Shown: piece after piece, positions 33,922-64,000 of the stretch
How the letters are laid out: each line of letters begins with the position of its first letter
Numbering within the stretch: the first letter of the stretch is position 1
Virus record (IMG/VR): IMGVR_UViG_3300044723_011313
Location: 2,942 to 66,941 of that record
DNA length: 64,000 bases
Strand: one strand, 5' to 3'
DNA from: a virus
Lineage: Duplodnaviria; Caudoviricetes
Translations under genes and position numbers: made by a program
The notes under the pieces: model-generated
Told to the model about the DNA's origin: nothing
Seen by the model: only the letters and a program-made list of their open reading frames with translations
The model's database searches: none

Positions 33922-35480
33922 TGGCTATTAAAAGATATATTGCTACGGCTGACAATACAATTACAAATGCATACGAAGCAAATCTCACAACGAGAGGCAC
34001 CGGATCAAACATGGGTGCAGCAGATGTTGTTGAAGTGTTTTATATTTACGGACAAGTATCCTCATCTTCTGGAGTACAAACAGAAAAATCAAGAGCTTTA
34101 GTGCAGTTCGATACCGATTCTATCAACACTGATAGAGGAAACGGTTTGATTCCTGCAAGTGGCAATGTTTCTTGGTATTTGAACTTGTATAATGCTCCTC
34201 ATGCTTTTACATTACCTAAAAACTTTACTATGTCTATTTTGGCAGTGTCTTCTTCGTGGCAAGAAGGTACAGGCTTGGATATGGAAAACTATTCAGATCT
34301 TACATATGAAAGCACTGGCTCTAACTGGATTCGTAGAGGGGCTAGTGGTGATGGATTTACTGACTGGACATCTGAAGGAGGGGATTTCCTAGAAATATCT
34401 CAAGTTGTTAGTTCTAGTGGATATGCATCATATACTGCTTCTTTTGTAGATGGAACAGAAAATATTTCTGTCGATGTAAGTGATTTGGTAGAAAAGTGGC
34501 TTGAAGGTGCAACTGACAATTATGGATTTGCAGTTTTGATGTCGGGAGGATATGAATCTGGTCCAGACTCAAATTATACTAAAAAATTCTTTGCAAGATC
34601 AAGTGAGTATTTCTTCTTAAGACCAAGCTTGGAAGCTCGATGGGATTCTGCACAGAAAGATGACACAGGTAACTTCTATCAAAGTAGTTCTTTGGCAACA
34701 GGAGAAGATAACCTAAACAAGATCTATCTCTACAACTATGTAAAAGGGCAACTCAAAAATATACCAGATAGTAATACACACTCGGATACTAACCAGATTT
34801 ATGTAAGTGTGTACTCTAATTCTGCTGGAAACATTTACGATAAGTTGCCTTTACCAATTGGTGGGGATGTAGTAGCTGGAGGCGATGTCAATGTCACTGG
34901 AGGGATTGCAATAGGGCCAAAAGGTGCCATTGAAGGTGTGTACACTGCATCTTTTGCAATGTCACACTCAGTTGAAGATGTTTATGCAGTGTGGCATTAT
35001 GAAGATCTGGTTGCTTATCACACAGGTTCTGCAATAGAAGTGAAAGATTTGCAAGCATCAAATTATAATCCAGACCCTGATTATGTAACAGATATAGAAA
35101 ATCTAAAACCTTCTTATTCTACAAGTGAAAAAGCTAGATTTAGATTGTTTGTAAGACAGAAATATTGGAACCCAAATATTTATACAGTTGCTCAAACTGA
35201 AATACCAACTGAAATTATTGAGGATGCATACTATTCTGTTTATAGAACAAGTGATGATTATGAAGTAATTCCATTTGGAACAGGATCTTCAACTCAACCT
35301 CAATCATTGGGAAGTGCTGGATCGTATACTAGATTATCTTACGATGTTTCTGGCAACTATTTTGATTTAGATATAAGTTTGTTGCAAGCTGGTTATGAGT
35401 ATGGTGTTAGGTTCGCATATTACTTGAACAACTCATACAAGGAACAGGAAGAAATTTTTAAGTTTAGGGTTGAAAAATAA
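33921..35480 (+). CDS. Baseplate-associated beta-rich protein (DNRLRE-like N-terminus)
   Basis: ADNTITN, SRALVQFD, WQEGTG, VSDLVEKWL, NYGFAV, KKFFARS, RPSLEARWD. Confidence 0.55.
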   Translation: MAIKRYIATADNTITNAYEANLTTRGTGSNMGAADVVEVFYIYGQVSSSSGVQTEKSRALVQFDTDSINTDRGNGLIPASGNVSWYLNLYNAPHAFTLPKNFTMSILAVSSSWQEGTGLDMENYSDLTYESTGSNWIRRGASGDGFTDWTSEGGDFLEISQVVSSSGYASYTASFVDGTENISVDVSDLVEKWLEGATDNYGFAVLMSGGYESGPDSNYTKKFFARSSEYFFLRPSLEARWDSAQKDDTGNFYQSSSLATGEDNLNKIYLYNYVKGQLKNIPDSNTHSDTNQIYVSVYSNSAGNIYDKLPLPIGGDVVAGGDVNVTGGIAIGPKGAIEGVYTASFAMSHSVEDVYAVWHYEDLVAYHTGSAIEVKDLQASNYNPDPDYVTDIENLKPSYSTSEKARFRLFVRQKYWNPNIYTVAQTEIPTEIIEDAYYSVYRTSDDYEVIPFGTGSSTQPQSLGSAGSYTRLSYDVSGNYFDLDISLLQAGYEYGVRFAYYLNNSYKEQEEIFKFRVEK

Positions 35481-38400
35481 TGGTTAGAAAATCTGATAAG
35501 AAAGGATTGGGAGATCTTTTCAGAAAAGGCTCGACTGCATACGATGCTACAAAAACAAGAAAAGTTCTAGCATCTAGCAGTGCTGATGAAGTTGGAAGAG
35601 AGATTGAGTCACCCGGATATGTAAAGTCTTTTCTAAAAGATAAAGACCGTTTCTTCCCAAATGTAGATTTTTCCAATCCAGCTAATTTTGCAAAGTTTGG
35701 ATCAGCAAGGCAGTATTATGTAAAAGCCATTGAGAACATCTATAGATTCTATCCATATGATGGGTCTCTTAAAGAGAAGCTTGATTGGCACAACTCTTCT
35801 TCATATTTTGATAATTACATTTTTGAAAACGAATACCCTAGAACCAACGGGTATGTTGAAATCGGTCATACTTGGGGATCAGTTTCGTCAACAATTGATG
35901 GAACTTCCTTTGGCGATGTTGTATACAAGAAGTCATCTGCCCCTCAATATATTAGCATAAAAGGTGGACCAAACGGTCCTTCTGTTCCTGCATATGCATC
36001 AGGATCCGGATATGAAAAGCCTCTAAGCTACAAGTTCAAAGAACAAAAGGCTAATGTTTATGATGCTGATATTCGACAAGAACAAAACCTTACTATCGAT
36101 GGAACAACAGGAAACACTGTTGAGTTCTGGCTCAAATTAGAAACAGAGCCTTCGAAAAGCCAAGCCTCTCCGGGTCATGCTTATTTCGACATTTGGAACA
36201 ATGATCTTGAGTATCTTCCGGGAAGTAACCAGACATACGGTCGCCTAATCATTGAAAGTCTTTTTGATGTTGACGGAGGCGGAGATCCTGATGGTTCATA
36301 CTTAGGAGATTCCATCTTTTATGTTACATATGCATCTGGATCTAATGGTGTAAGTCGTACCCCAATCGGTCCAACAAGCCTGAGTGGAAACTTAGATATC
36401 AGCCTGTCAGATTGGAATCATTATTCTTTTGTTATGCAAAACGATCCAACTGGATCTAATTTGTTACTTAAGTTATACATAAATGGGGATCTTGCAGATA
36501 CAGTTATAACTGGATCTCAGATCAACTCAGTCGATACTTTGCCGCTCAATGCAAACATTGGTGCCTACAGGATTGGTCCAACACCTGCTTTGTATAGTTT
36601 GGGCATGAATAGTGATGGATGGGGAGCCTTATCTGGATCTTCGATGGATGAATTCAGGTTTTGGAAAAGTGCAAGAAGCTCAAAACAAATTGGAAGAAAT
36701 TGGTTTACACAAGTAGGTGGAGGCACCAATTCAGATTATGGCACTACCGAATCCAAGTTCAGTGGATCATCTAATCCAGTTGACTTAGGAGTTTATTACA
36801 AGTTCAATGAAGGTATTACACTTACTGCCTCTCTGGACAGAGTAACTTTGGACTATTCTGGTCGCATCTCAAATGGATTCATCAATAATTATTCTTCAGG
36901 AATGAGATCTACTGGATCCGCTATGGTTATTTCCAATGCGGCAGAAAGAGAATTCAAAGATCCAATTATCTATAGCAGCCATCCAAGTGTTGTTACATAC
37001 GAGGCAGCAGCTAGTTCGAAAGGTCGTGAATACGATGGAAGAAACTCTTCTTTCATGTTCAACACTCTTCCCGGATGGATTATCGATCAAGACGAAGATA
37101 GACAGAGAGATACAGTTCTAGCCTTGACTCAAATTATGTCAAGCTACTTTGATGAGCTTTCTTTGCAAATAGAGAAGCTTCCAGAATTGAAAAATAAGGG
37201 ATATATAAGTGGATCTGTAAGCGGAAGCACAAACAAGCCATTGCCATTTGCTGATAGGTTATTGAAGAGTCATGGGTTTGTAGCTCCCGAAATATTTGCA
37301 GATGCAGAAATTTTAGAATCATTGGCTAATAGAGATGACAGCAGAGAGTTTGAAAGAAAATTAGCTGATGTCAAAAACCAGATTTATACAAACATTTATA
37401 ATAACCTTTTGTTCATCAATAAGTCCAAAGGGACAGAGAAGGCTATAAGAAACCTTATTAGATGCTATGGTGTTGATGATGATCTATACTCGCTCAACAT
37501 GTATGCAGATAATGCATTTATAAAGTTGTCTGAATCTTCTAGACCAAAAGTTGTTCGCAAAACATATGCTGACTTTAATAGTTTGGCAAATTTTGATGCA
37601 ACGGTTTACCAACACCCAGATCCATCTAATTCTAATTCGGTATCATATATTACAGGAAGTACGGATCCAAGTTTTGATGGCTTCGATTCGCACACGGGGA
37701 TGACATTAGAAGCAGAAGCAATCTTTCCCAAGAAGCCCCTTTCAAACTCTCCGGGATTTTTAGACAAAGCATTTGTAGGTTTATCTGCTTCTTTGTTTGG
37801 TATGCACTCTGCTGTTGAGACTTCTACAGATTATGCTTGGGCAGATGATGATTATGCCAACTTCCAAGTATATGCAGTTAGATCATCAGAGACATATCCT
37901 TCAAATAGAGATGTACATTTTGTTTTGAGTGCTTCAAATGTCAATGACACAACTGAAGGAATCTTTACAAAGATTGTTACAGATGTCTACAAGGAAGTGT
38001 ATGAAAATCAAAAGTGGAACTTCGCTGTAAAAGTAAAGCCAGAAAGGTATCCAAACATAGGTGAAATCTCTGGCTCAAGCGACGGTGTTGGATATACTGT
38101 AGAATTCTTCGGTGTATGCACATTCAATGACCAAATTATCCACCAGTTTGCTTTGACTGAATCAATCAATCAAGCAAATGGTATTCAATTTGCAACAAAT
38201 AGAAAAAGAATTTATGCAGGTGCTCACAGAACAAACTTTACAGGTTCTTTGCTGACTAAAACAGATGCAAGAATATCTTCTTGCAGATACTGGTCTATAC
38301 CTTTAGAAAACGAAGAAATCGTTTCTCATGCGATAGACCCTAAAAATTTCGGTGTTTTCAATGCAATGGAAAGCAGTTACTTGTTGCAAACGGCACCATC

Positions 38401-41400
38401 TGCATTTCCTCAAGACATTGCAAAAATAAACACTCTTGCTTTGCATTGGGACTTTGATACTGTAACTGGATCCGATTCAAATGGTCAATTTATTGTTCAA
38501 GACTATTCTTCTGGTTCAGACGATGCGAGATATGGAGATGGATTCTCTAATTTGTTACTCAAGCAACACACTGGTAGAGGTGATTTCTTCGCAACTAGCA
38601 GCCAAACAGCAGTATCTAGAGAATATGTTCAAAGTTACAGACAACAAGTACCAGAGAATTTAAATTCTTACACTTCTGTAAACATTCTGTCAAGAGACGA
38701 TGAGCTTTTCACAACAAGGACAAAGCCAATCAAGTTCACTTATGCAGTCGAAAAAAGCATGTATCAGACCATTTCAGAAGAAATGATCAATTTTATGGCT
38801 GCTGCATCTGATGCAAGTGCTATGGAAAACTTGATTGGAGATCCTGTAAACAAATATAGAGCAAATTATAAAGCTCTTGAAAAGATTAGAAACATTTTCT
38901 TCGAAAGAGTTCAGAACACTCCTGACTTAGATAAGTATTTGGATTACTTCAAGTGGCTCGACTCTGCTGTGTCAGAAATGGTCGAGAAGTTAGCCCCTGC
39001 TTCAGCAAGAATCAATGAAGTTTCTAATGTTGTCGAAAGTCATCTTTTCGAGAGAGGCGGCAAATATGCACACAGGTTCCCAACAATGCACTTTGGGTCG
39101 AATGATCCAAGTGGTTCAATTAGAGGTATCAATGAGCTTCTTTACGATTGGGAATTTGGACATGCCCCAATTAGCTTGGAACAAGATGAAAATTGTTTGT
39201 GGTGGAATAAAAGAGCACTAAGAGATGATGCTAGTCTTGCAATAGGAAATGACGGTGTTGATACAGACAGAACTAGAATTCATTCTGCATCAGTGCAAGT
39301 TTTCAACAGAAGATTCAACTCTCCATATAGAATTACAGCGATTGATGGCGGAGGATCTAAGAAGACACAGAGAAATATCAAGTCAATTGTAATGACAGAG
39401 ACGGTTCCTTTGAATAACGACAAAGGATTGTCTTTCAATACAGGAACATTCTTGAGCAGTTCTGATTGTTCTGACTTAGACAAGATAGATCCAAACAGAA
39501 AATATAGAACAGACTATCAAGTAACTTTTAGAGACAACGATGGCAAAGTATTACCCGGAAAATTAGTTGGTAATTACGAGTTTGTATCTTCATCTGTTGA
39601 GCCAAGTGACGGAGAAGTGCCAAGCGGATATACTATAGATTCTCAGCACTTGCAAGATTACTACTCTTTACACAAAGAGATTCCGATTCAAGGACCATTC
39701 ACGGAACAACATGTGGGTGGTAACTCGCATAGGCATGAAGGCTTGAATATTGGTGTTGCAACAGAACGACCAGAAGGATATGTTGTAAATACATCTGTAG
39801 ATTCTGATGGAAATATTCAATATAATGTTGTGAACCCTTCTTATAATGATGTAAATGCTCCAAGAGCGGATTATACAAGGGATTTTGTTGCCAAAAGTGC
39901 TGTAAATATCAAGAATATTCAAACAAATACAGCTTCAATTCAAAACGAATACGGATCTTTGGTTGCCGAAGGTAACTATGTGAACGATTATGAGATTGTT
40001 CAAATCCCCGGTAGAGACATCAACAACAGATATTTGGCTGAAAATGGGGGCATTGACACCACATTTGCAACATCTTCCATCGTTTTTGGTCTAGAAGATT
40101 ACGAAGTTCCAGATAGAGGAAGAAATTCAAGCATTATGGTCAGTAGGTTCTCTGCTCCGGGAGGTCCTGAAGTAAATAGCCCTGCTTATTTGGATGCTGA
40201 ATCAGAAACCTATTCAATATACAATGTTTTACCATTCAGAAACCTGTCAGTTAGACGACCAATGAATACTCTTTTGACAAGACACTCTAATTTTGGTGGA
40301 ATTGACAGTGTGTTGGGCTCCCCATCTGCATCTTATCAGAAGACACAAAGAAATGGGGCAAAAAGAATCGTATCAAGCAGCAGTGGATATTCAACTGCTT
40401 CTGTATATGACAATTACTGGGTTCAACATATGATCCCACAAAGTGATTTGCAATACTCATGGATCACAGCATCTGCAATTCAAGCACCATTTGGATATTC
40501 TAAGAAAGACTTTTCAAATGCTAGCGAAGCATCAACTGATATACTGTTTGTGACTGCTAGTTTGACTGGTGCATATCGAGAAAACGGCGAATTGGTTCCT
40601 GTTGACTTTGTTGGCTTGAATTCTGTAGTATTGAACAGTGTAGATAATAGCTCAAACTTGATCGAATTCACATCTAGTACTGATTTGTTCCCTGCAAACG
40701 GAGAACTTAAGTCGACTTTACTTCTCAATTCAATCAATTTGAACACAAACGGACCCGGAGGCTTTTCTTCTTGGAAGCAAGTTAGACAATCGTATAATCC
40801 TATTGTAAGAAATATGAACAAAACTAATAGAATTAGTTTTGTCACAGGAGAAACATTAGAGAGCTACACAGAATCACCAGTTACTTTTAGATTCAAGCCA
40901 ATGGAACACCAGTTTGTTTTGAAAAACGGTGATACAATCAATATAAAAAGCTCTTATGGAAACAATCTTCATAGTTTTAGTGATCCAAATATCGTATCTA
41001 AATTGAATATTGGTCCTGTAAAGATTGAAAAGTTGTTCCAACTCAAGGCAGGAATAGGTCAAACTTATGATGATTTGAAGGCAATTTACATTTATCAACA
41101 AATGGATTCAGATTTTAGTCCTTTTGCAATTGATGATTTTGGTGCCAACCGTCTTGAATTTTTGAAATATTCAGAAGATATTTATCCTGCTGGAAACAAT
41201 GTTGGACTTTCTAAGGTTAGAGGTAGAGAGAATTACACAGTAGCTACTGGATCTGAAAACTTTGAAGTAAACTTGGGAGACTCAATAGCTTTTTGGAAAG
41301 ACAATATTGATGATAGACAGAGAACAAACGATGTAGCAAGAAATGCCCAAGGCTTATTGATTGCCAGTGGATCATCCTACTTTGGAATTTCTGATCTTAG

Positions 41401-44400
41401 CATTTGGCCGCTTGATGCAGAAGAACCATTCTACGACTTGGAACATCATTCTGCATCTGGGGATGCTGCATACACTTTGGCACAGCAAGGGTATGATCCA
41501 TTTTATTATTCTCCACTAGGACCATCTGGAGCACAGCTAGACCCGGATGTTGAGCCTCGCTGGAATGATGTCACAAAGAACGGAGAGCTTTCTTATGCCG
41601 GTTGGATTTATAATCTACTGAATATACAGATACAAGGTAAAGTAAGATACGATGATGGAAACGGACCCGGAGCACCAACTGGTTCTGGTCCAATTGAAGT
41701 GAAGACCTATTATGTTGAAGCTTCTCCAACAGCATCGTTCCAATTTGAGTATCCAAATATGATTTGGTCTGGATCGATTGCTTACACATCTGATTACTAT
41801 GCAGCAACTGGTCCGAGACCTTCTGCTTCGTTGCATTTGATCCCTCCTTACAGAGCAAATGTGCTTAGTGGAAGATCTCCTTGGTTTGATTCATATGAAG
41901 ATTATGCAAAAGACATCAGGTCTTTTGGTAAAGACTTCAGTGTCTTGCCAGAATTTAGAATCTCAGAGCATATCGATTATTATTTGAGTAAAGGTGCCAA
42001 ATCTATCAATAAAAAGTATGCCACCCTTGTTGGTGCATCTACTGATGTAACCGCATCTGCTGATGGAGAAGAATTATCATCATTATTCAATAAAGACTTC
42101 ATAAACACTTATCAAATGAGTGATTTTATGAAGCATTTCAAAATCATAAAAGAAGATCACAACAAAGAAGTTGGTGGTGTAAAAGAAGTAGATACTATTG
42201 AGGGAGAAGGAGGAGTCCCAACATCAGTAGTTACAGAAAAGACTCGAAAAGCAGCCAAGTTTTCTAAGATAAAATTGGAATGCGAAGGGATCAAAAAACT
42301 CTTACCATATCAAGGATTTTATCCTGCTCTCCGTGCAGTTCAACTTGGTCATCTTTTTGCAGACTCTTATGGTCCATATATCACAGGATCTAACACAAGA
42401 TTGGAAATAGAACCATCAAGAGCCGAATCAGAACAAGGTGTAAGTATGGAAAGGTTGGCTGCACTTTATCAGCCATTCTTTGCACCGGGAATCTTTTTCA
42501 ATACTATCAAGTCTGGTATAGCTGTTGATTATGCTGTTCACACAGGCTCTCAGCCACAGGTACAAACAAACCCATATTTCAGAGTATCAAGTCCTTTCAG
42601 TGGGGCAGGATATCCTATGAATCAATTTGGAGAGGGTCCAAATTATGTATTTCCGTTTGAAGCCATAGTGAATCCGGACAGATTCCTCCCTATCTCCTCT
42701 TCAGAAATAGGACCAGATACAAATGTGCCATCAGCAAGTGTATACTTTGTATATCCTCATTTTACCGGATCTACTGTCACAGTCTATAATGAAAATTTCT
42801 ATGCAAGAGACGGCGACAGGGCAATCTTTAGAGAAGATCAAGGTTTCAATGGTATAGGGTCTGCATCTGGATCTGGAGCACAGCCTATATACTTTGAATG
42901 GTTGGGGCAAAGCGATGTAAAATACTCTTTGGCTGCAAACAATTTCTTTGCAGAAGTTCAAAACTTTTTCCTCGAAAAGAGGTCTCCAACTTCATTTGTT
43001 TCACAAGCGGAAAAGAGTTTCAAGACAATGACTTCGGGCTCATCTTACTATATGGATGTGGTTCTCTATAAGACGGACGATTTTATATCTTACGAAGGTC
43101 CTTCTGGTTCTTTCTCATATGATCCATATGGAGGAGATTTGTCTAGATATGACCAATCAGCAGTAAATCTTTTGGGAGATGGAAAAAGATATGAAAAAGC
43201 TACCGCAACTATCACTACTGCAACAGGGTTTGCAAATGGCGAAACTATAACACTGGTTGATTCAGATGGAACATCTCATCTATTTACTTTAGATAACACA
43301 ATCACTTACGGTGCTGGTGGTAATCCATCCTATTCTGGAACAGGAAAAGTTGGAATTAGTGGAATTAGTACAGCAAATGATTTTGCTTCTGCTATAGCCG
43401 TCGCTGTAACTGGTTCTTCTGCTAGTGGTGCAACTGGGTTTGATAGTAGTGTTGCGACCAATGTTGTTACTGTTGAAACTGATAAAGCAGGTTCTGACGG
43501 AAATCAAACCAATTCAGAAACATTAAGTGGAGATACAGTCGTAGGAGACTTCATAAATGGATCTAATCCAAATCCAGTTTCGGCTAGAGGTATACACTAT
43601 GGACCTCCATATAGATCACAACAATATGCATGGGGCTTGAAAGGCACAGGGTCGGCTTGGTTTGAAGATCCTTCTTATGCTATCCACACTCCTCCTTATT
43701 TCTATGGAGATGCAATTGCAAGAATTGAATTCAAACCTCATGAAGCGAGAGACTTAGCAGAAGGAGAATCAGCAAAGTTCACTCTTCAAGAGATTTTGGC
43801 AAATGCTAAAGTAAACACAAGTTATAGAAATAAGAACCAGCGAGCAAAAGCACTTCAAAACGATGATTACAGAAATGATTATCCGGCAGGAAGATCGCAA
43901 ATGCAAATTTCTTCTTCTGTAAACTTGTTCGGTCAAATAACTTTGAAAGAAGTTCAATATAAGAATCAGAAAGATGCAGCAGGTAATTTCATACCAGATG
44001 GTGCTACAACACCAGTTATTCAAGATTCACAAGATGCTTGGGTAATTGAGTCAAAGTTTGAATGCCCATCAGTAAACTTATTTGATATGGATGTTGATTC
44101 TTTGGGAGCCGGTGCAGGTCTTGGAAAAGAAAAGTATTATACAAAAGGAATTTGGAAAGGCTATGGTCGCCCATCTTCTGGCTCATCTGGAATTTACATG
44201 CAAATTCGTGAGAGCTTTGGACCAAAAACTTATGCAATTGGAGGAAATACAGAGTTCAATCCATCTGCAAAAACTCCATTGACTGGTTCTCTAATTGATG
44301 TATGCGGATTCAAAGCAGACCAACAAAGGGTAGGGGAAATTGCAGACAACAGAGAATTATCAGAAGCTATTGTTGCGATACCTGTAGATGGAAAAGGAAT

Positions 44401-45028
44401 GCCTTTCAACATCAGTACGACTGCTTATAAGACCCAAATTCAGAACATGAAAAATGGAGATCTTCCTGTGCTAGCAGGACAGCTTGATTCGGAAAAGGAT
44501 GTCGAAGAAACTTCTATTTCTAGAATGTATAACTTGATGCAAAAATATTACATTCCGCCAGATATGGATTTCTCAAAAGAAGATAATTTCAGCACTCTTA
44601 CAATAAAACCTTTTGTAATGTATATCTTTGAGTTTACACATACACTCTCAAAAGAAGACTTGTCTTATATTTGGCAAAACTTGATGCCTGACATTTCTAT
44701 AAAGGCAGAAAAGCAAAAGTCTGTTTTTGAGCATGAAATTGGACCTGCATATGAATTCTTTGGAACTCTTGGAGAACAAGGGTTCCCTGACAATGTTAGA
44801 TGGAAAGTATTCAAAGTAAAGAAAAGAGCACGAAACAACTATTTCAATATCACTAAAACATCTGAGAGAGGTAATGGCTTCGCATTTACATCTCAGACTG
44901 AATTAGCAGGATTCTCATCTGATCCAGAGGCAGAATTGCCATTCAGCTACAACTGGCCTTATGATTTCTGCTCACTGGTTGAATTAGCTAAGGTCAATTC
45001 AGAGGTTACTTTTGAGCCGGAAGAATAA
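35480..45028 (+). CDS. 3182-aa baseplate wedge protein (gp7-like) with LamG/concanavalin domains
   Basis: LamG patterns TVEFWLK..WNHYSFV..LYINGDL..DEFRFWKSAR..YYKFNEG and a second copy ending LHWDFD; gp7-like KSKGTEKAIRNLIRCYG; position after gp6. Confidence 0.65.
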   Translation: MVRKSDKKGLGDLFRKGSTAYDATKTRKVLASSSADEVGREIESPGYVKSFLKDKDRFFPNVDFSNPANFAKFGSARQYYVKAIENIYRFYPYDGSLKEKLDWHNSSSYFDNYIFENEYPRTNGYVEIGHTWGSVSSTIDGTSFGDVVYKKSSAPQYISIKGGPNGPSVPAYASGSGYEKPLSYKFKEQKANVYDADIRQEQNLTIDGTTGNTVEFWLKLETEPSKSQASPGHAYFDIWNNDLEYLPGSNQTYGRLIIESLFDVDGGGDPDGSYLGDSIFYVTYASGSNGVSRTPIGPTSLSGNLDISLSDWNHYSFVMQNDPTGSNLLLKLYINGDLADTVITGSQINSVDTLPLNANIGAYRIGPTPALYSLGMNSDGWGALSGSSMDEFRFWKSARSSKQIGRNWFTQVGGGTNSDYGTTESKFSGSSNPVDLGVYYKFNEGITLTASLDRVTLDYSGRISNGFINNYSSGMRSTGSAMVISNAAEREFKDPIIYSSHPSVVTYEAAASSKGREYDGRNSSFMFNTLPGWIIDQDEDRQRDTVLALTQIMSSYFDELSLQIEKLPELKNKGYISGSVSGSTNKPLPFADRLLKSHGFVAPEIFADAEILESLANRDDSREFERKLADVKNQIYTNIYNNLLFINKSKGTEKAIRNLIRCYGVDDDLYSLNMYADNAFIKLSESSRPKVVRKTYADFNSLANFDATVYQHPDPSNSNSVSYITGSTDPSFDGFDSHTGMTLEAEAIFPKKPLSNSPGFLDKAFVGLSASLFGMHSAVETSTDYAWADDDYANFQVYAVRSSETYPSNRDVHFVLSASNVNDTTEGIFTKIVTDVYKEVYENQKWNFAVKVKPERYPNIGEISGSSDGVGYTVEFFGVCTFNDQIIHQFALTESINQANGIQFATNRKRIYAGAHRTNFTGSLLTKTDARISSCRYWSIPLENEEIVSHAIDPKNFGVFNAMESSYLLQTAPSAFPQDIAKINTLALHWDFDTVTGSDSNGQFIVQDYSSGSDDARYGDGFSNLLLKQHTGRGDFFATSSQTAVSREYVQSYRQQVPENLNSYTSVNILSRDDELFTTRTKPIKFTYAVEKSMYQTISEEMINFMAAASDASAMENLIGDPVNKYRANYKALEKIRNIFFERVQNTPDLDKYLDYFKWLDSAVSEMVEKLAPASARINEVSNVVESHLFERGGKYAHRFPTMHFGSNDPSGSIRGINELLYDWEFGHAPISLEQDENCLWWNKRALRDDASLAIGNDGVDTDRTRIHSASVQVFNRRFNSPYRITAIDGGGSKKTQRNIKSIVMTETVPLNNDKGLSFNTGTFLSSSDCSDLDKIDPNRKYRTDYQVTFRDNDGKVLPGKLVGNYEFVSSSVEPSDGEVPSGYTIDSQHLQDYYSLHKEIPIQGPFTEQHVGGNSHRHEGLNIGVATERPEGYVVNTSVDSDGNIQYNVVNPSYNDVNAPRADYTRDFVAKSAVNIKNIQTNTASIQNEYGSLVAEGNYVNDYEIVQIPGRDINNRYLAENGGIDTTFATSSIVFGLEDYEVPDRGRNSSIMVSRFSAPGGPEVNSPAYLDAESETYSIYNVLPFRNLSVRRPMNTLLTRHSNFGGIDSVLGSPSASYQKTQRNGAKRIVSSSSGYSTASVYDNYWVQHMIPQSDLQYSWITASAIQAPFGYSKKDFSNASEASTDILFVTASLTGAYRENGELVPVDFVGLNSVVLNSVDNSSNLIEFTSSTDLFPANGELKSTLLLNSINLNTNGPGGFSSWKQVRQSYNPIVRNMNKTNRISFVTGETLESYTESPVTFRFKPMEHQFVLKNGDTINIKSSYGNNLHSFSDPNIVSKLNIGPVKIEKLFQLKAGIGQTYDDLKAIYIYQQMDSDFSPFAIDDFGANRLEFLKYSEDIYPAGNNVGLSKVRGRENYTVATGSENFEVNLGDSIAFWKDNIDDRQRTNDVARNAQGLLIASGSSYFGISDLSIWPLDAEEPFYDLEHHSASGDAAYTLAQQGYDPFYYSPLGPSGAQLDPDVEPRWNDVTKNGELSYAGWIYNLLNIQIQGKVRYDDGNGPGAPTGSGPIEVKTYYVEASPTASFQFEYPNMIWSGSIAYTSDYYAATGPRPSASLHLIPPYRANVLSGRSPWFDSYEDYAKDIRSFGKDFSVLPEFRISEHIDYYLSKGAKSINKKYATLVGASTDVTASADGEELSSLFNKDFINTYQMSDFMKHFKIIKEDHNKEVGGVKEVDTIEGEGGVPTSVVTEKTRKAAKFSKIKLECEGIKKLLPYQGFYPALRAVQLGHLFADSYGPYITGSNTRLEIEPSRAESEQGVSMERLAALYQPFFAPGIFFNTIKSGIAVDYAVHTGSQPQVQTNPYFRVSSPFSGAGYPMNQFGEGPNYVFPFEAIVNPDRFLPISSSEIGPDTNVPSASVYFVYPHFTGSTVTVYNENFYARDGDRAIFREDQGFNGIGSASGSGAQPIYFEWLGQSDVKYSLAANNFFAEVQNFFLEKRSPTSFVSQAEKSFKTMTSGSSYYMDVVLYKTDDFISYEGPSGSFSYDPYGGDLSRYDQSAVNLLGDGKRYEKATATITTATGFANGETITLVDSDGTSHLFTLDNTITYGAGGNPSYSGTGKVGISGISTANDFASAIAVAVTGSSASGATGFDSSVATNVVTVETDKAGSDGNQTNSETLSGDTVVGDFINGSNPNPVSARGIHYGPPYRSQQYAWGLKGTGSAWFEDPSYAIHTPPYFYGDAIARIEFKPHEARDLAEGESAKFTLQEILANAKVNTSYRNKNQRAKALQNDDYRNDYPAGRSQMQISSSVNLFGQITLKEVQYKNQKDAAGNFIPDGATTPVIQDSQDAWVIESKFECPSVNLFDMDVDSLGAGAGLGKEKYYTKGIWKGYGRPSSGSSGIYMQIRESFGPKTYAIGGNTEFNPSAKTPLTGSLIDVCGFKADQQRVGEIADNRELSEAIVAIPVDGKGMPFNISTTAYKTQIQNMKNGDLPVLAGQLDSEKDVEETSISRMYNLMQKYYIPPDMDFSKEDNFSTLTIKPFVMYIFEFTHTLSKEDLSYIWQNLMPDISIKAEKQKSVFEHEIGPAYEFFGTLGEQGFPDNVRWKVFKVKKRARNNYFNITKTSERGNGFAFTSQTELAGFSSDPEAELPFSYNWPYDFCSLVELAKVNSEVTFEPEE

Positions 45029-57894: not shown

Positions 57895-58383
57895 ATGAGT
57901 CAATTGGAAGATATCCAACTTAGCGATGATACTTTGATTACCTTGACATATGAAGATGTCTACGAAGGTCGTCATTGTGATGATGAGTTTGAGCAATGGG
58001 CAGTGGAAAACACAAGCACAGTAGAAACTTTGGTTGAGGTAATCAATAGTGGTGTAAATGTTTTGGCTGTTTATGGCAACAAGCCCATTATGAACTCTGT
58101 TCCAGACTACATGGAGTCAGATTTTACTGAGGCTATGGAAGGAACAGAGGTTGGAAGCGAAGGATTTACTGAAAAACTTAGTGATTTCTTGACTTCTAAC
58201 TACATGGATATGGACAGTTTTATTGAACGAACTGTTGAGCAGTGGGATTACAAGGAAGGTTCTTGTACTGTTGCTGCGACCATTAAGGTCACACTAGGAG
58301 ATCTTCGTCAGAACGAAGAAGTATTTTCTGGTTGGACCGCTTCAGTGCCAATGGGAAAAGGCACTTTTACAACTGAACTATAA
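57895..58383 (+). CDS. Acidic hypothetical protein
   Basis: AAGGAG SD before ATG; no recognisable motif. Confidence 0.7.
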   Translation: MSQLEDIQLSDDTLITLTYEDVYEGRHCDDEFEQWAVENTSTVETLVEVINSGVNVLAVYGNKPIMNSVPDYMESDFTEAMEGTEVGSEGFTEKLSDFLTSNYMDMDSFIERTVEQWDYKEGSCTVAATIKVTLGDLRQNEEVFSGWTASVPMGKGTFTTEL

Positions 58384-58394
58384 AGGAGTTTATT

Positions 58395-58748
58395 TTGAAG
58401 AATTTATTTATTTTATTTACCGCTTTCACTTTTGCAGCAGCATTCATTGGCTGTGAAGAAGAGGAAGAAACTACTGTAGAAGAAGCAGCAGATGCTGCTG
58501 AAGGCGAGGAAGCCGCTGAAGAAGAAGCGGAAGAAGAGCCAGCAGAAGAAGAGGTAGAAGAAGAAGCCGAAGAGGAAGCCCCTGCTGAAGAAGAAGCAGA
58601 GGAAGAAGTCGAAGGCGAAGAGGCAGCAGAAGAAGAGGAAGAGGCTGAAGAAGAAGCCGATGCCGAAGAAGAAGTTGCCGAAGAAGATGCTACTGACGAA
58701 GAGGAAGTAGTTGAAGAAGAAGAAACTGAAGAAACCGAAGGAGAATAA
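58395..58748 (+). CDS. Poly-glutamate lipoprotein
   Basis: TTG start with AAGGAG SD; signal peptide MKNLFILFTAFTFAAAFIG-C; mature chain 58 Glu and 4 Asp in 97 residues, no Lys or Arg. Confidence 0.75.
   Translation: MKNLFILFTAFTFAAAFIGCEEEEETTVEEAADAAEGEEAAEEEAEEEPAEEEVEEEAEEEAPAEEEAEEEVEGEEAAEEEEEAEEEADAEEEVAEEDATDEEEVVEEEETEETEGE
58455..58745 (+). repeat. Coding low-complexity GAR/GCN repeat (A-EEE units)
   Basis: Imperfect tandem units such as GCN-GAA-GAA-GAR encoding (A/V)EEE. Confidence 0.8.
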
Positions 58749-58749
58749 C

Positions 58750-60369
58750 TTGAAGAACTTTTTTATTGCGACACTGATTGTTTTTGGATTGGCTGGCTGT
58801 GAAGACACAACCACACCAGAGGACACTACAACAGAGCAGACAACTGGTGTAAAGTTTACAGGAGCAAATGATAATGGCACAACAACCCCAGAAACTACTC
58901 CTGTCAGCACTACGACAGAAGAGGCTGGAACGACAAACGAAACTGGAACAGGCACAACTCCAACGGAAGTTGAAACTGGCACAGAGACGGAAGTTGAGCC
59001 AACCGAAACTGAAACTACTCCAGAAGAGTCTACTGAAACAGAGCAGGTAGAGGGTGTAACCCTCGCCGATCTGACGGCAGAAGATCTTGCTGAGATTGAA
59101 TCTCTAAGGCAAAATATCTTTGCTGGGATTAGTGTAGGTGAAGGTCTTTATGTAAATCAGGTAAATCTAGCCCTAGAAGATCTCGGTCTTTATGACGGAG
59201 GAACCCAATGGGGAGCAGAAGTAGATTTGCCAGAGGTTTCTAGTTGTCCTTTTGTTGAGTTTTATAACAATACAAAACCACTTTCAGAGGCTAGTTGCGA
59301 GTATTTGGTTGACCAAGCAAGGTCGAGTGCTTACTCTAAACTGGCAGCAGCACTACAAACTGAACGACAAAACTTCAACTCTGAACTATCAGAGCAGGAC
59401 TTTTGGTACGAGCAGGGTGCTATTAGTGGTCTAGAGAAAACCCGTGTTGTAATTCAAGTTCAAATGAAAACCGGAGGTCTTTGTAATCAAACCCCAACAG
59501 CAGTAGAGAGTTCTAAGGAAAAAGGGCTTGTTGTTGGTCGCCAGCATTTTATCAACACAATGAATAACTGGCTGACTACCAATGAATACAAGGCTGATTA
59601 TCCAGTAATGTCTGACCCTATCGAAGTATGTGATGCCAACATTGCTCTTCTCGACCCTGTTTATGATGAGGCTGTCAATACAATCTCGCAAGCAGTAACA
59701 AGCACTCCTCTGTGTCAGGATTTTGTCCCAACAGACGGAGACGAAGAGTTCTTGTATGCCCAAGCAAAAACCGACTTTTCCAATGCGGTTGAGCAGGGTA
59801 TTACAGATGAGTTTTCTTTGGCTGCTGTAAAGATTTTTGAAGTTGTCCCTTGTAATGTGTCAGACCCTATCGTTATCGACCTCAATGGTAATGGTAAGTT
59901 TGATGTGACTGCGATTGAAAAAGGTGTAAACTTTGCCATGACTGGTCGTCGTAGCCAAGCAGTATCTTGGGTAAACGGAGACGGTTTCCTGTTCTTTGAT
60001 GCTAACCAGAATGGATTAGCTGATAATGGCTTGGAACTTCTTGGAACAGACATCAAATCTAAGTCTGGTTTCGACCAACTTGCTTGGTTTGATACAAACA
60101 AAGACGGAACTTTCAGTTCGGCAGACAAGCAGTTTGACCAGTTCTTCGTGTGGAATGATGTAAACTCCAATGGAACTTGTGAAAAAACAGAAGTATTTAC
60201 TTTGAGTAAATTCAACATCACAAGCATTCCGTTGACTACACAGACTTCAAACACAGTTGTAAATGGAAACTTGGTCAAAACAACCGTTCGTGCTGCCACA
60301 ACCAAAGAAAATGCTAGTATTCTTATGGGAGATATAAACTTGCGATCAGCAGCTTATCCTCGCCTGTAA
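58750..60369 (+). CDS. Lipoprotein with Thr/Glu stalk, Cys-containing central domain and C-terminal FrpC-like self-processing module
   Basis: TTG 58750 with GGAG SD; MKNFFIATLIVFGLAG-C lipobox; D|PIVIDLNGNG at 59863-59895; DANQNGLADNGLELLG; DTNKDGTFSSAD; VWNDVNSNG..EVFTL; MGDINL. Confidence 0.8.
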   Translation: MKNFFIATLIVFGLAGCEDTTTPEDTTTEQTTGVKFTGANDNGTTTPETTPVSTTTEEAGTTNETGTGTTPTEVETGTETEVEPTETETTPEESTETEQVEGVTLADLTAEDLAEIESLRQNIFAGISVGEGLYVNQVNLALEDLGLYDGGTQWGAEVDLPEVSSCPFVEFYNNTKPLSEASCEYLVDQARSSAYSKLAAALQTERQNFNSELSEQDFWYEQGAISGLEKTRVVIQVQMKTGGLCNQTPTAVESSKEKGLVVGRQHFINTMNNWLTTNEYKADYPVMSDPIEVCDANIALLDPVYDEAVNTISQAVTSTPLCQDFVPTDGDEEFLYAQAKTDFSNAVEQGITDEFSLAAVKIFEVVPCNVSDPIVIDLNGNGKFDVTAIEKGVNFAMTGRRSQAVSWVNGDGFLFFDANQNGLADNGLELLGTDIKSKSGFDQLAWFDTNKDGTFSSADKQFDQFFVWNDVNSNGTCEKTEVFTLSKFNITSIPLTTQTSNTVVNGNLVKTTVRAATTKENASILMGDINLRSAAYPRL

Positions 60370-60383
60370 AACTAAAAAAATAC

Positions 60384-60412
60384 TTGACATTACAAAGCTC
60401 CTCTGCTACTAT
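60384..60412 (+). promoter_or_regulatory. Sigma70-type promoter with extended -10
   Basis: TTGACA (60384-60389), 17-nt spacer, TG-c-TACTAT (60404-60412); AGGAG SD and ATG 60443 downstream. Confidence 0.8.
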
Positions 60413-60428
60413 GTAGGGGAGCTTTTTT
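60394..60428 (+). terminator. Intrinsic terminator hairpin overlapping the promoter
   Basis: AAAGCTCCTCTGC / TACTAT / GTAGGGGAGCTTT (13 bp, 2 G-U) ending in a 6-T run, 25 nt after the lipoprotein stop. Confidence 0.7.
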
Positions 60429-61098: not shown

Positions 61099-61268
61099 TG
61101 GTAAAGGACAGTCTAGAAACTCTCGGCATAATCTCAGAAGTAAAAGGCAAAATACAAGGGGCTAATCATGATTGGAATAGGTACTATTACATGGTTATAC
61201 CAATGGGGTCAAAATACCCAGTTCCAGTGTGGAACAAAGAACTTGAATTAGTAAGGAAGGCAAAATGA
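61098..61268 (+). CDS. Small KOW/SH3-fold protein (start uncertain)
   Basis: TAATG coupling with GGAG 8 nt upstream; in-frame FEVGDLV precedes the ATG; ATGA overlap with the next gene. Confidence 0.55.
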   Translation: MVKDSLETLGIISEVKGKIQGANHDWNRYYYMVIPMGSKYPVPVWNKELELVRKAK

Positions 61269-64000
61269 AGATCGCACATGTAAGTGACATTCACATTCGG
61301 AACCACCGATACCACGAAGAATACACTGCTGTATTTGAGGAACTCTATGCTAAACTGCGAGAACTCAAGCCAGACATTATTGTAAACACTGGTGATACAG
61401 CACACACTAAACTACAACTAAGCCCTGCTTATTTTCACATGACCGCCAAGTTTTTTGAGAACTTAGCAGACATAGCACCCCTTCATGTGATCTTGGGGAA
61501 CCACGACCTCAACCTTCGTAATCCGGGTCGCATTGATGCTGTAACTCCGATTGTCGAGGCACTAGACCACAAGGACATTCACTTCCACAAGTTCTCACAA
61601 GAGGTAGATTTGGGTAATGGCTTTGTTCTGAATGTCTTGTCTGTTGTCGATGAGGACAAGTGGGTTGACCCAACAGACGAAAGCAAAGTAAATATTGCTC
61701 TTTTCCACGGCTCTGTTGCTGGTGTTACTACTGATACTGGCTGGGTAATGGACCACGGAGACATAAACATACAGCAGTTTGCTCCATTTGACTATGTTTT
61801 GCTCGGAGACATTCACAAGACATACCAGAAACTAGACGACGAAGGGCGAGTTGCTTATCCCGGCTCTCTGGTTCAGCAGAATTTTGGCGAGACCCCTGAT
61901 AAAGGATTTTTGCTTTGGGATATTGCAGATAAAGAAAACTTTACTTGCGAGCACTATTCGCTTACAAACCCAAAGCCATTTATCACTATCGAACTTACCC
62001 CAAAGGGAAAGATGCCCAAGAACTTGGATGTCCCCAATGGAGCACGACTTCGCTTGGTGTCTCAGAACAACCTGCCCCTCGATGTTATGCGACGAGCAAT
62101 GGATATTTCCAGAACTCGTTTCAAGCCTGAAAGTGTAACTTTTCTCAACAAAGCATCTGGTCAGCGAGCAGATGTAAAGAATTTGACTGACGGACTTGAC
62201 ACAGAAGACTTGCGAGACATCAAGACCCAAGAAAAGCTAATCAAAGAGTATCTCAAAGATTTTGAGGCTTCAGAAGAGACTTTGGAAAAAGTTTATTCCC
62301 TCAATCGACGATACAATACTATGGCAGAAGAGGAAGAAGAGGTAGCCAGAAACATCAACTGGTCGCTCAAATCATTTGAGTGGGACAACCTCTTCAACTA
62401 TGGCGAAGGAAACAAGGTAGATTTTACCAAACTCAACGGAATCGTTGGTATTTTTGGTAAGAACTACTCTGGTAAGTCTTCGATTATTGACGGATTCCTG
62501 TACACTCTCTTCAATTCTACCAGCAAGAACGAAAGGAAAAATCTAAATGTAATCAACCAGAATAAAGATAGAGGATGTGGTCGCCTTGAGATTGCTATTG
62601 GTGAAAAAGATTTTCTAATTGAGAGAGAGTCAACTAAGTATATCAAGAAACTCAAAGGTGAGGAAACCCTAGAGGCTAAAACCGACATCAATTTTTCCTG
62701 CTACGACCATGTAACTCAAGAGGAGGAAGAACTCAACGGAGATAGCAGAAACGGCACAGACAAGAACATTCGTAAGATGTTTGGAACAGTAGACGATTTC
62801 CTGCTGACTTCTATGTCGTCTCAAGTGGGTAGTCTCACCTTTATCAATGAAGGCTCCACAAAGCGAAAAGAAATCTTAGGCAAGTTTCTTGACCTCTTGA
62901 TCTTTGAAAAGAAGTTCAAGAAAGCCAAAGAAGATGCTGCGGATATGAAGGGAGCCCTAAAACTATTGGAGGGCAAAGAATATGAGACCGATATCGCAGA
63001 TACCACAGAAGCACTTGAACAAAACTCTTCCTCAAAAGAAAAGCAAGAGCAGAAATGTCGTAAATACTCCGAAGCAATCACGAGGACTGAAAACTCTATC
63101 AGCGAGATTGACCGGAAGATTGGTTCTATCCCAGCAGAGATAATCAATATCGTTGAGGTCAAGGAAGAGCAGATCTCTAAGCAAAAAGAGGTCAAGACTC
63201 TTACCAATCAAATCAACGAACTCAAAGAAGAAAATAAAACAAAAAGAGTAGATCACCAGCGAATCAACGAAGCCTTAGAGAGTTTCGACATTGATTCGCT
63301 CCGTGCCGTTCAAAAAGAGATTGCCGAAAAGCAGATTGTTTTGGAAGGCACAAACCAGACAATCGAACAGCAAGAGTACCGATTGGAGCAGAACAAGAAC
63401 AAGGTAAAACTTCTCTTGGAAGTTCCTTGTGGTGATGAATTCTCTTCTTGTAAGTTTATCAAAGATGCTTACAATGCTCAGGGCAATGTTGTTGTTATCG
63501 AGCAGAACCTCAGAGACCTTCGCAATGAAAGCGAAACACTCTATGAGGACATTGAGCAACTCAACCCTAAAACAATCGAGCGAAAGATTGATAAGTACGA
63601 AGAAGTTCTCGAAATGCGAGACGATATCTACAATACTATCAACCAAAACGAACTTGTGGTCGAGAAGAACGAGAGTAAAGTATCTACACTCAATCTAGAA
63701 ATCGAAAAACTCCAAGGAAAAATAGAGGAATACGAGGAAAACCGTGAGGCTATTGAGAACTTGGAAGAACTGCTCGAACAAAAGGCAGAACAGCAAAATA
63801 ACCTCAAAGCACAGCAAATAATCTTGGACGAGTGTAACGAAGAGATTATTGGTCTAATCAAAGAGCGAGGTTCGCTGGAGCAGAGATTAGAAAATCTTAC
63901 TAACCAGAAAGAAGAAATGGAAACTCTGCGAGATAACTTTGCTGCCTACGACTTGTTTATGCGGTGTATGCATACCAATGGCATCTCTTTGGATGTTATC
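61265..64000 (+). CDS. Fused Mre11/SbcD nuclease - Rad50/SbcC ATPase (gp47-gp46-like), 3'-truncated; absent from the ORF track
   Basis: Manual translation gives 912 codons with no stop: SDIH, TGD, GNHD, FHG, GDIH phosphoesterase motifs, then FEWDNLFNYG, Walker A GKNYSGKSS (62456-62482), a coiled coil and PCGDEFSSCKF. Confidence 0.92.
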   Translation, partial: MKIAHVSDIHIRNHRYHEEYTAVFEELYAKLRELKPDIIVNTGDTAHTKLQLSPAYFHMTAKFFENLADIAPLHVILGNHDLNLRNPGRIDAVTPIVEALDHKDIHFHKFSQEVDLGNGFVLNVLSVVDEDKWVDPTDESKVNIALFHGSVAGVTTDTGWVMDHGDINIQQFAPFDYVLLGDIHKTYQKLDDEGRVAYPGSLVQQNFGETPDKGFLLWDIADKENFTCEHYSLTNPKPFITIELTPKGKMPKNLDVPNGARLRLVSQNNLPLDVMRRAMDISRTRFKPESVTFLNKASGQRADVKNLTDGLDTEDLRDIKTQEKLIKEYLKDFEASEETLEKVYSLNRRYNTMAEEEEEVARNINWSLKSFEWDNLFNYGEGNKVDFTKLNGIVGIFGKNYSGKSSIIDGFLYTLFNSTSKNERKNLNVINQNKDRGCGRLEIAIGEKDFLIERESTKYIKKLKGEETLEAKTDINFSCYDHVTQEEEELNGDSRNGTDKNIRKMFGTVDDFLLTSMSSQVGSLTFINEGSTKRKEILGKFLDLLIFEKKFKKAKEDAADMKGALKLLEGKEYETDIADTTEALEQNSSSKEKQEQKCRKYSEAITRTENSISEIDRKIGSIPAEIINIVEVKEEQISKQKEVKTLTNQINELKEENKTKRVDHQRINEALESFDIDSLRAVQKEIAEKQIVLEGTNQTIEQQEYRLEQNKNKVKLLLEVPCGDEFSSCKFIKDAYNAQGNVVVIEQNLRDLRNESETLYEDIEQLNPKTIERKIDKYEEVLEMRDDIYNTINQNELVVEKNESKVSTLNLEIEKLQGKIEEYEENREAIENLEELLEQKAEQQNNLKAQQIILDECNEEIIGLIKERGSLEQRLENLTNQKEEMETLRDNFAAYDLFMRCMHTNGISLDVI

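Follow-up and report, generated by a model that had tools for sequence, protein, structure and literature searches.

Does a phage-encoded lipoprotein end in a working self-processing module (SPM) of the kind described in FrpC of Neisseria and, if so, to what would its reactive end be joined? The question is raised by an open reading frame (ORF) of 539 amino acids (aa) on the plus strand of a 64,000-nucleotide stretch of viral DNA (positions 2,942 to 66,941 of IMG/VR virus record IMGVR_UViG_3300044723_011313; hereafter the window), running from a TTG at 58750 to the stop codon that ends at 60369. A first-pass annotation of the window, made from the sequence alone, had read this gene as a phage lipoprotein with an FrpC-type SPM that cuts itself at an Asp-Pro bond upon binding Ca2+ and leaves a reactive fragment on the membrane. 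It had proposed alignment with the FrpC SPM and superposition of an AlphaFold model as checks, and had named a non-conserved Asp-Pro, or a match to generic EF-hand or RTX repeats only, as findings that would speak against it. We here propose that an exported lipoprotein, which undergoes Ca2+-driven cleavage at Asp-Pro and may thereby form a covalent tether from the membrane to a target, is the best overall explanation of the locus, and we regard it as probable.

A phmmer search of the whole protein against all PDB chains matched the FrpC SPM entries 6SJX and 6SJW only (E 1.5e-15), with residues 371-531 aligned to residues 2-171 of the 182-residue FrpC chain, so that nearly all of the 177-residue FrpC module (FrpC residues 415-591) is covered. 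The identity of ~30% extends across the full 160-170-aa module, and as a sequence match this lies far beyond chance. The C-terminal domain is predicted with confidence by AlphaFold 2 (AF2; 44 homologues), and Foldseek aligned this model to 6SJX with an E-value of 6.9e-9, a probability of 1.00, a target-normalised template modelling (TM) score of 0.75 and a root-mean-square deviation of 3.5 Å over 177 columns; no significant PDB entry was found apart from 6SJX and 6SJW. In line with this, the precomputed Pfam annotation PF26745 'SPM' is attached to the window's own protein and to all full-length homologues. The Pfam-A copy that was scanned directly did not include the PF26745 model, and scans of the whole protein with this copy and with NCBIfam returned nothing useful. 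The PHROG profile phrog_3677, labelled 'protease', matches the SPM region with an E-value of 1.9e-8.

The residues on which the FrpC reaction depends can be traced through the family, with their roles taken from PMC7078468 and conservation counted in an alignment of 120 homologues. The scissile D414-P415 of FrpC corresponds to D372-P373, which is present in all 119 homologues that have a residue at this column; Asp-Pro is also kept in 13 of 13 bacterial loci. The incomplete EF-hand of FrpC (D419/D421/D423/G424, completed by D456) is kept as D377/N379/N381/G382 with D411, the three EF-hand-like loops D462-E474, D499-D511 and D521-E532 are kept as D417-E429, D448-D459 and D470-E481, and the T-shaped Trp pair W451/W519 is kept as W407/W468. 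If D/N exchange is allowed, the four Ca2+ sites and the Trp pair are conserved in at least 117 of the 120 homologues. FrpC D579, whose Ala mutant is dead, is D528 in the phage protein and Asp in 117/117. A seventh Cys in the SPM (C477) is not conserved.

Sequence, profile, predicted fold and conservation thus bear out the SPM identification of the first-pass annotation. Both of the checks it had proposed give a match, its Asp-Pro is invariant among close homologues, and the match takes in the complete SPM and is not confined to generic EF-hand or RTX repeats. We assign the C-terminal domain to the FrpC-type SPM family as a true member, and self-cleavage of the phage lipoprotein is likely on these grounds.

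The layout of the protein is that of a lipoprotein with a stalked head. Residues 1-17 (58750-58800, plus strand) form a predicted lipoprotein signal peptide, (M)KNFFIATLIVFG-LAGC, recognised from the sequence, a weak Pfam LPAM_1 match and the conservation of Cys17. With K2 as basic n-region, the h-region FFIATLIVFG and the lipobox L-A-G-C17 (pattern [LVI][ASTVI][GAS]C), the signal resembles those of bacterial lipoproteins processed by Lgt and Lsp. In the mature protein, Cys17 would come first and carry the lipid; 113 of the 120 aligned homologues have it, and six of the other seven show a gap at that column. A disordered stalk rich in Thr, Glu and Pro follows (residues 18-104; 58801-59061, plus strand), defined by composition (34 Thr and 19 Glu among the 90 residues from 18 to about 107), by a predicted local distance difference test (pLDDT) score below 50 at residues 1-108, and by its variable length. 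Over the family, the stalk has a median length of 94 aa and ranges from 53 to 146, as expected of a spacer. Residues 105-371 (59062-59862, plus strand) form a helical-bundle head with six Cys, delimited by AF2 models and Cys conservation. The predicted scissile bond Asp372-Pro373 (59863-59868, plus strand) aligns with D414-P415 in 6SJX/6SJW, and residues 373-531 make up the SPM, which with an 8-residue tail and the stop codon occupies 59866-60369 (plus strand; phmmer, Foldseek, precomputed PF26745 and Ca2+-ligand conservation).

Most of this layout had been anticipated. The lipobox, the Asp-Pro with 167 aa to the stop and every motif block quoted by the first-pass annotation are found in the translation, and the Cys of its six-Cys central domain (C166, C183, C245, C294, C322 and C368) are each conserved in 117-120 of 120 homologues. 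It was right about a Thr/Glu stalk and short on its length, given as roughly 70 aa and nearer 90. The tethered fragment, put at 372 aa, needs correction: cleavage at Asp372-Pro373 would leave residues 17-372 (356 aa, computed 38.6 kDa) on the lipid anchor and release an SPM of 18.2 kDa.

The start and end of the gene are marked by conventional signals. A Shine-Dalgarno sequence, AAGGAG, was read at 58738-58743 (plus strand), 6 nt 5' of the TTG, which itself lies 1 nt past the stop codon of a gene for a second, Glu-rich lipoprotein. Starting from another TTG of the same frame, at 58711, would lengthen the product by 13 Lys-rich residues; homologues begin at the MKNFFI/MRNFII position. Downstream, a consensus scan matched a terminator-like pattern at 60394-60425 (plus strand), a hairpin whose stem measures 13 bp, with a T run behind it, which probably ends the transcription unit of the two lipoprotein genes.

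The head between stalk and SPM is modelled by AF2 as a bundle of long helices (predicted TM score 0.81 for the domain alone). Its six conserved Cys fit an oxidising, extracytoplasmic location, and so does the lipobox, which bacterial orthologues share; an extracytoplasmic protein fits these sequence features. A profile of the head, run against 1.84 billion cluster representatives, retrieved only 103 proteins. In 63 of these the SPM stands at the extreme C-terminus (many of the rest are short fragments), followed by 0-63 residues, partial matches included, and none of the 63 has an RTX block. Head and SPM thus appear as an evolutionarily coupled unit, which would be expected of a head that holds a target in place for the reactive Asp, as FrpC 1-414 holds FrpD and as engineered NeissLock binders do.

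The head itself has no recognisable relative in the collections searched. Its profile gave a chance match against PDB sequences (E 0.88), Foldseek with the model found no PDB match for the head, only for the SPM, the best score of a wide VIA-align search (Z 7.7) was within the noise range of helical bundles, and the ESM Atlas returned no usable match. Pfam scans of ten family members that lack the SPM gave nothing apart from an unrelated DUF5666 protein. K258 is the best-conserved Lys of the head and is found in all 120 close homologues; the two bacterial orthologues that diverge most have Ala at this position and yet retain Asp-Pro, and for this reason a required internal isopeptide with K258 was rejected as a general mechanism. 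Among distant proteins with both head and SPM, the residue preceding the SPM Pro is Ser in 11 representatives (P0197, P0202, P0210, P0213, P0218, P0222, P0223, P0229, P0232, P0253 and P0254), and Thr or Glu in two each (P0200, P0250, P0234 and P0246), not Asp. These SPMs could be inactivated or could follow another form of self-processing, such as an N-to-O acyl shift at Ser/Thr-Pro.

The architecture is shared with bacteria. When prokaryotes were scanned with one genome for each species, 13 loci emerged, with an identity of 32-44%; eleven are labelled Myxococcales, Myxococcota or, in three cases, 'Deltaproteobacteria', and one 'uncultured proteobacterium'. The carrier genomes that were looked at measure 4-11 Mb and hold one or two copies each, and the head domain occurs in 12 of 301 sampled genomes of Myxococcota. 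Where the N-terminus is complete (12 loci), the protein consists of a Cys-ending signal, an acidic or Pro-rich stalk, the head, the junction PCNV[SG]DP and an SPM of ~170 residues. The family is thus not confined to phages, the same architecture being found in metagenome-assembled genomes of aquatic Myxococcota.

In eight of these 12 bacterial loci, and in a 384-kb bacterial contig, the gene immediately downstream is conserved (L013:7622-9505, with equivalents in L006, L008, L009, L010, L011, L014 and L016). The three copies scanned encode Big_7 Ig domains and a BamB-type PQQ_2 beta-propeller, and a lipobox was read in the translation of the L013 copy. This BamB-like lipoprotein is a candidate binding or cross-linking partner in Myxococcota.

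A maximum-likelihood tree groups the nine phage sequences in a single clan (support 100/100). A FastTree analysis with distant members added as outgroup and with midpoint rooting places this clan inside the Myxococcota sequences; the placement is suggestive only. In the simplest history, a phage would have taken up the gene once from a bacterium, and other phages would have acquired it later. As for the present host of the phages, Bacteroidota were considered from the acidic residues after the lipid-bearing Cys and from D-T-T motifs.

Within the phages, the gene lies outside the structural genes, in a replication module of early or middle type. The virus record measures 66.9 kb and is about 37% complete. 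Nearly all genes of the window are on one strand, with three tRNAs, and PHROG matches include PhoH, glycosyltransferases and a baseplate wedge protein. The SPM gene is surrounded by genes for a RuvC-like resolvase, a primase, a cytidylyltransferase and a fused SbcD-SbcC-like protein. Six related viral contigs carry it in the same slot, the primase-SbcCD interval, and it recurs in three other phage contexts, one of them a 267-kb phage, which points to stable carriage in the phage lineage. Cultured phages are related only very distantly, the nearest being Microcystis Mel-JY01, Flavobacterium 'immuto' and Rhodothermus RM378. Near-identical DNA occurs in metagenomes of many studies labelled estuary, marine and freshwater. 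Metatranscriptomic runs of four studies contain short contigs that match parts of the gene at 97-100% identity, for which DNA carry-over is possible; one RNA-library contig bridges the junction of the two lipoprotein genes and, with the same proviso, is not counted as expression.

The gene on the 5' side (58395-58748, plus strand) encodes a poly-Glu lipoprotein of 117 aa with a TTG start, a signal peptide and the lipobox FIGC. Its mature part has 58 Glu among 97-98 residues and not a single Lys or Arg. An equivalent acidic lipoprotein ORF lies directly 5' of the SPM gene in L019, L021, L022, L023 and L024, which makes five of the eight other phage loci whose sequence includes the upstream region; these comprise two loci with a different wider synteny. 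No equivalent was found in L020, L026 and L027, or in any bacterial locus. Judged by this distribution, the poly-Glu lipoprotein appears to be a phage-specific, frequent and non-obligatory partner. As it has no amines, it cannot be an isopeptide acceptor; we conjecture that it serves as a local polyanionic Ca2+ buffer or shield. PADLOC gave no match for the two lipoproteins or their neighbours, and PHROG gave for the SPM lipoprotein, besides phrog_3677, only a weak match of phrog_902 to signal and stalk. A part in lysis, for example as a spanin, was also weighed; among the adjacent genes that were scanned, no match to endolysin or holin families turned up.

From the FrpC mechanism (PMC7078468), the following course of events can be proposed. 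The unfolded chain would cross the inner membrane through Sec. On the far side, in a periplasm rich in Ca2+ or on the cell surface, the SPM would fold around four to five Ca2+ ions and strain the Asp372-Pro373 bond, which would break and release the 18-kDa SPM. The lipid-anchored stalk and head would be left with a short-lived anhydride at Asp372, which would hydrolyse or acylate a nearby amine, most plausibly a Lys of a target bound by the head, so that membrane and target become covalently tethered. Of the options for the anhydride, an isopeptide with a Lys of a head-bound protein is favoured over hydrolysis, reaction with a peptidoglycan amine and intramolecular stapling. More speculatively, in Myxococcota the BamB-like neighbour would be the obvious candidate partner, in phages the captured gene product might remodel or block a component of the host envelope, and the poly-Glu lipoprotein might be an accessory, for instance as the Ca2+ buffer suggested above. 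Seawater contains about 10 mM Ca2+, and sea or estuary water is in the millimolar range. In such water the reaction would fire constitutively on export, with no regulated switch.

For the marine phages, a more daring version can be formulated, which we offer tentatively. The two lipoproteins would form a cassette in which an autocatalytic 'covalent harpoon', on meeting ambient Ca2+ after export, sheds its SPM and irreversibly welds its stalked head to one specific component of the host envelope, and the poly-Glu partner tunes local Ca2+. Candidate targets include a receptor, a BamB-like assembly factor and the cell wall.

Several observations weigh against the proposed cleavage and tether. Among the mapped functional residues, FrpC D478, the second carboxylate of a proposed transient fifth Ca2+ site, is the sole departure: it is Thr433 in the phage protein, and the family has Thr (94) or Asn (24). 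In FrpC, D478N cleaves moderately more slowly and D478A markedly more slowly (PMC7078468). We therefore expect the SPM to be active, though its kinetics may differ. Cleavage has been demonstrated for SPMs of RTX proteins of Neisseriaceae and Pasteurellaceae only, which are 60-98% identical to FrpC (PMC12538545) or belong to ApxIVA (PMC7078468), compared with only ~30% here. The 11 Ser-Pro members indicate that the domain can persist without anhydride chemistry. The link step requires a positioned nucleophile, and cleavage followed by mere hydrolysis is equally simple. Finally, the GC content of the phages (37-41%) does not fit that of the Myxococcota loci (53-66%) as hosts.

The nucleophile is the point at which the strongest alternative enters. 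Here, the SPM would be a self-removing, Ca2+-dependent domain for folding or export maturation, the anhydride would hydrolyse, and the head would act non-covalently. In engineered SPM fusions that lack a positioned nucleophile, hydrolysis of the anhydride is indeed a major outcome (PMC12538545), and no partner or acceptor Lys can be identified in the present case, K258 being Ala in two divergent orthologues that keep Asp-Pro. Self-removal does not need Asp as such, yet Asp-Pro is found in every close homologue, and in every case the SPM follows immediately on this one type of head, which fits a bind-then-lock sequence like that of FrpC 1-414 and FrpD (PMC5233953). We consider cleavage alone unlikely, while ranking it ahead of the other alternatives.

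Somewhat less probable still is a role in superinfection exclusion or receptor masking, which the first-pass annotation had suggested for its 'grappling hook' alongside attachment of the cell to neighbours or prey. The lipoprotein would lock covalently onto the phage receptor or another outer-membrane protein, so that secondary infection is blocked and progeny are spared inactivation by debris, as T5 Llp achieves non-covalently with FhuA. Receptor blocking by phage-encoded lipoproteins of the outer membrane has been established (T5 Llp; PMC9586334; bioRxiv 10.64898/2026.03.26.714494), and a gene in the replication module, followed by a terminator-like hairpin and stably kept in the lineage, would suit such a function. 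Against this stand the lack of similarity to Llp or Cor, the lack of a functional PADLOC or PHROG match beyond the SPM region, and the bacterial orthologues, whose conserved cellular neighbour implies a housekeeping role in the envelope that the phage perhaps simply copied.

By analogy with Braun's lipoprotein, the Asp372 anhydride might instead acylate an amine of the peptidoglycan stem peptide (meso-diaminopimelate or Lys), as an autocatalytic envelope staple that dispenses with an L,D-transpeptidase. The architecture alone would allow this, with its lipid anchor, a spacer long enough to span the periplasm and a reactive C-terminus. The conserved, disulfide-bonded head of 270 aa suggests recognition of a specific protein rather than reaction with the wall, and neither the Pfam scan nor the wide structure search detected a peptidoglycan-binding domain; we therefore hold the staple to be improbable. 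Least credible of all is an inactive relic, a domain that no longer cleaves and merely binds Ca2+ as a structure: the Thr/Asn at D478 and the Ser-Pro, Thr-Pro and Glu-Pro junctions of distant members would agree with it, yet Asp-Pro and the D579 equivalent are invariant in the phage/Myxococcota clade down to 32% overall identity, and the D478N mutant of FrpC still cleaves (PMC7078468).

Some further features of these genomes deserve mention. The fused SbcD-SbcC-like gene occupies 61265-64000 of the window, open at the 3' end, as a single ORF of more than 912 aa with an SbcD/Mre11-like metallophosphoesterase, an SbcC/Rad50-like ATPase and a coiled coil (phrog_77 and phrog_35725); it is 81-87% identical in related phage contigs. 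Between the primase and poly-Glu genes, an acidic ORF of 162 aa (57895-58383) has no Pfam, PHROG or PADLOC match and no counterpart in related phage loci, and thus represents a strain-specific insertion beside the lipoprotein cassette. In the 267-kb phage contig, the SPM gene is followed by a gene for a secreted protein of 563 aa with the MopE-type metal-binding motif PF11617 (L027:7672-9363, also in L002). In this jumbo-phage context, an 801-aa protein encoded 3 kb upstream has a faint precomputed PF11617 match, and a cytidylyltransferase gene lies close to the SPM gene, as it does in the window. The tail/baseplate region of the window contains two giant ORFs of 2,645 and 3,182 aa (23715-31652 and 35480-45028).

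The literature searched treats the SPM exclusively as a module inside type I-secreted RTX proteins, and its natural purpose is unclear even in Neisseria; it is also the basis of the NeissLock protein-ligation technology. Full-text searching yielded no publication that describes a lipoprotein with an SPM. The first-pass annotation knew of no described phage example, and the literature that combines 'clip-and-link' with 'phage' is, judged by its titles and abstracts, not concerned with phage SPMs. The names of homologue clusters are only 'hypothetical protein' or COG2931. Among cultured and deposited phages, tblastn found only MT835772, an 'unverified' human faecal phage scaffold that is not of the lipoprotein type. 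The product of its reverse strand (MT835772.1, L028, 1-5427) exceeds 1,112 aa and comprises the junction VDP-LVLDFDKDG, an SPM and RTX repeats; by these features we count it among the classical RTX-type clip-and-link proteins, here under a phage label, and phrog_3677 probably collects such proteins. An SPM-like region in phage-labelled data is thus not wholly new. The lipoprotein architecture without RTX repeats is.

This architecture implies that the SPM has been recruited to another export route, Sec and the lipoprotein pathway, and to another topology, in which the module is terminal and the cargo is kept on the producer. It also implies spread of the SPM lipoprotein from Myxococcota-like bacteria to at least two kinds of large marine phages. 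With a defined head and, in bacteria, an adjacent candidate partner, these proteins offer compact systems for asking what clip-and-link chemistry is for, and they point to a possible covalent route by which phages remodel the host envelope. The pool of divergent SPMs, ~30% identical to FrpC and including natural Ser-Pro variants, could widen the ligation toolbox; their source habitats are likely to be cool and rich in Ca2+. If the tentative two-lipoprotein cassette were true, it would provide the first natural SPM outside RTX proteins of the type I secretion system (T1SS) with a defined, cis-anchored role, and the first covalent modification of the host envelope by a phage protein.

How, then, does the phage lipoprotein compare with known systems? 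With FrpC and FrpA of N. meningitidis and ApxIVA of Actinobacillus pleuropneumoniae it shares the homologous module, the predicted fold, the Asp-Pro at the N-terminal edge, the four EF-hand-like Ca2+ sites, the Trp pair and the equivalent of the essential D579. In both cases the cargo lies N-terminal to the cut, so that the reactive Asp would remain on the cargo. Unlike in FrpC and ApxIVA, the SPM is the last domain, with an 8-residue tail, no RTX nonapeptide repeats (no GGxGxD) and no type I secretion signal, and no T1SS component was found among the ten window genes around the SPM gene that were scanned against PHROGs. Export would instead rely on the Sec/lipoprotein signal, and the cargo would stay lipid-anchored on the producer cell rather than being released. 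The protein further differs from FrpC in the Thr at D478, in being phage-borne and in having its cellular relatives among Myxococcota, not Neisseriaceae or Pasteurellaceae. Taken together, these features place the domain within the SPM family and the protein, as far as its sequence tells, outside the class of clip-and-link RTX exoproteins.

The combination of a lipoprotein with a clip-and-link fragment at the outer membrane recalls FrpD, the N. meningitidis lipoprotein that binds the clipped FrpC 1-414 fragment (PMC5233953), and Myxococcota likewise have an adjacent lipoprotein gene, the BamB-like one. In contrast to FrpD-FrpC, anchor and SPM are united in one polypeptide, and the BamB-like and poly-Glu neighbours are unrelated to FrpD. 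A more conjectural likeness exists with T5 Llp and the Cor proteins, phage-encoded outer-membrane lipoproteins from outside the structural module that act on the host envelope, as the SPM lipoprotein might, and exclude superinfection by blocking FhuA; there is no relationship in sequence or fold, and Llp is small and acts non-covalently. Braun's Lpp is a functional analogue only, with an N-terminal lipid anchor and a C-terminal residue covalently attached to the envelope. Lpp is attached through its C-terminal Lys by L,D-transpeptidases, whereas the chemistry of the phage lipoprotein would be autocatalytic and proceed through an Asp anhydride.

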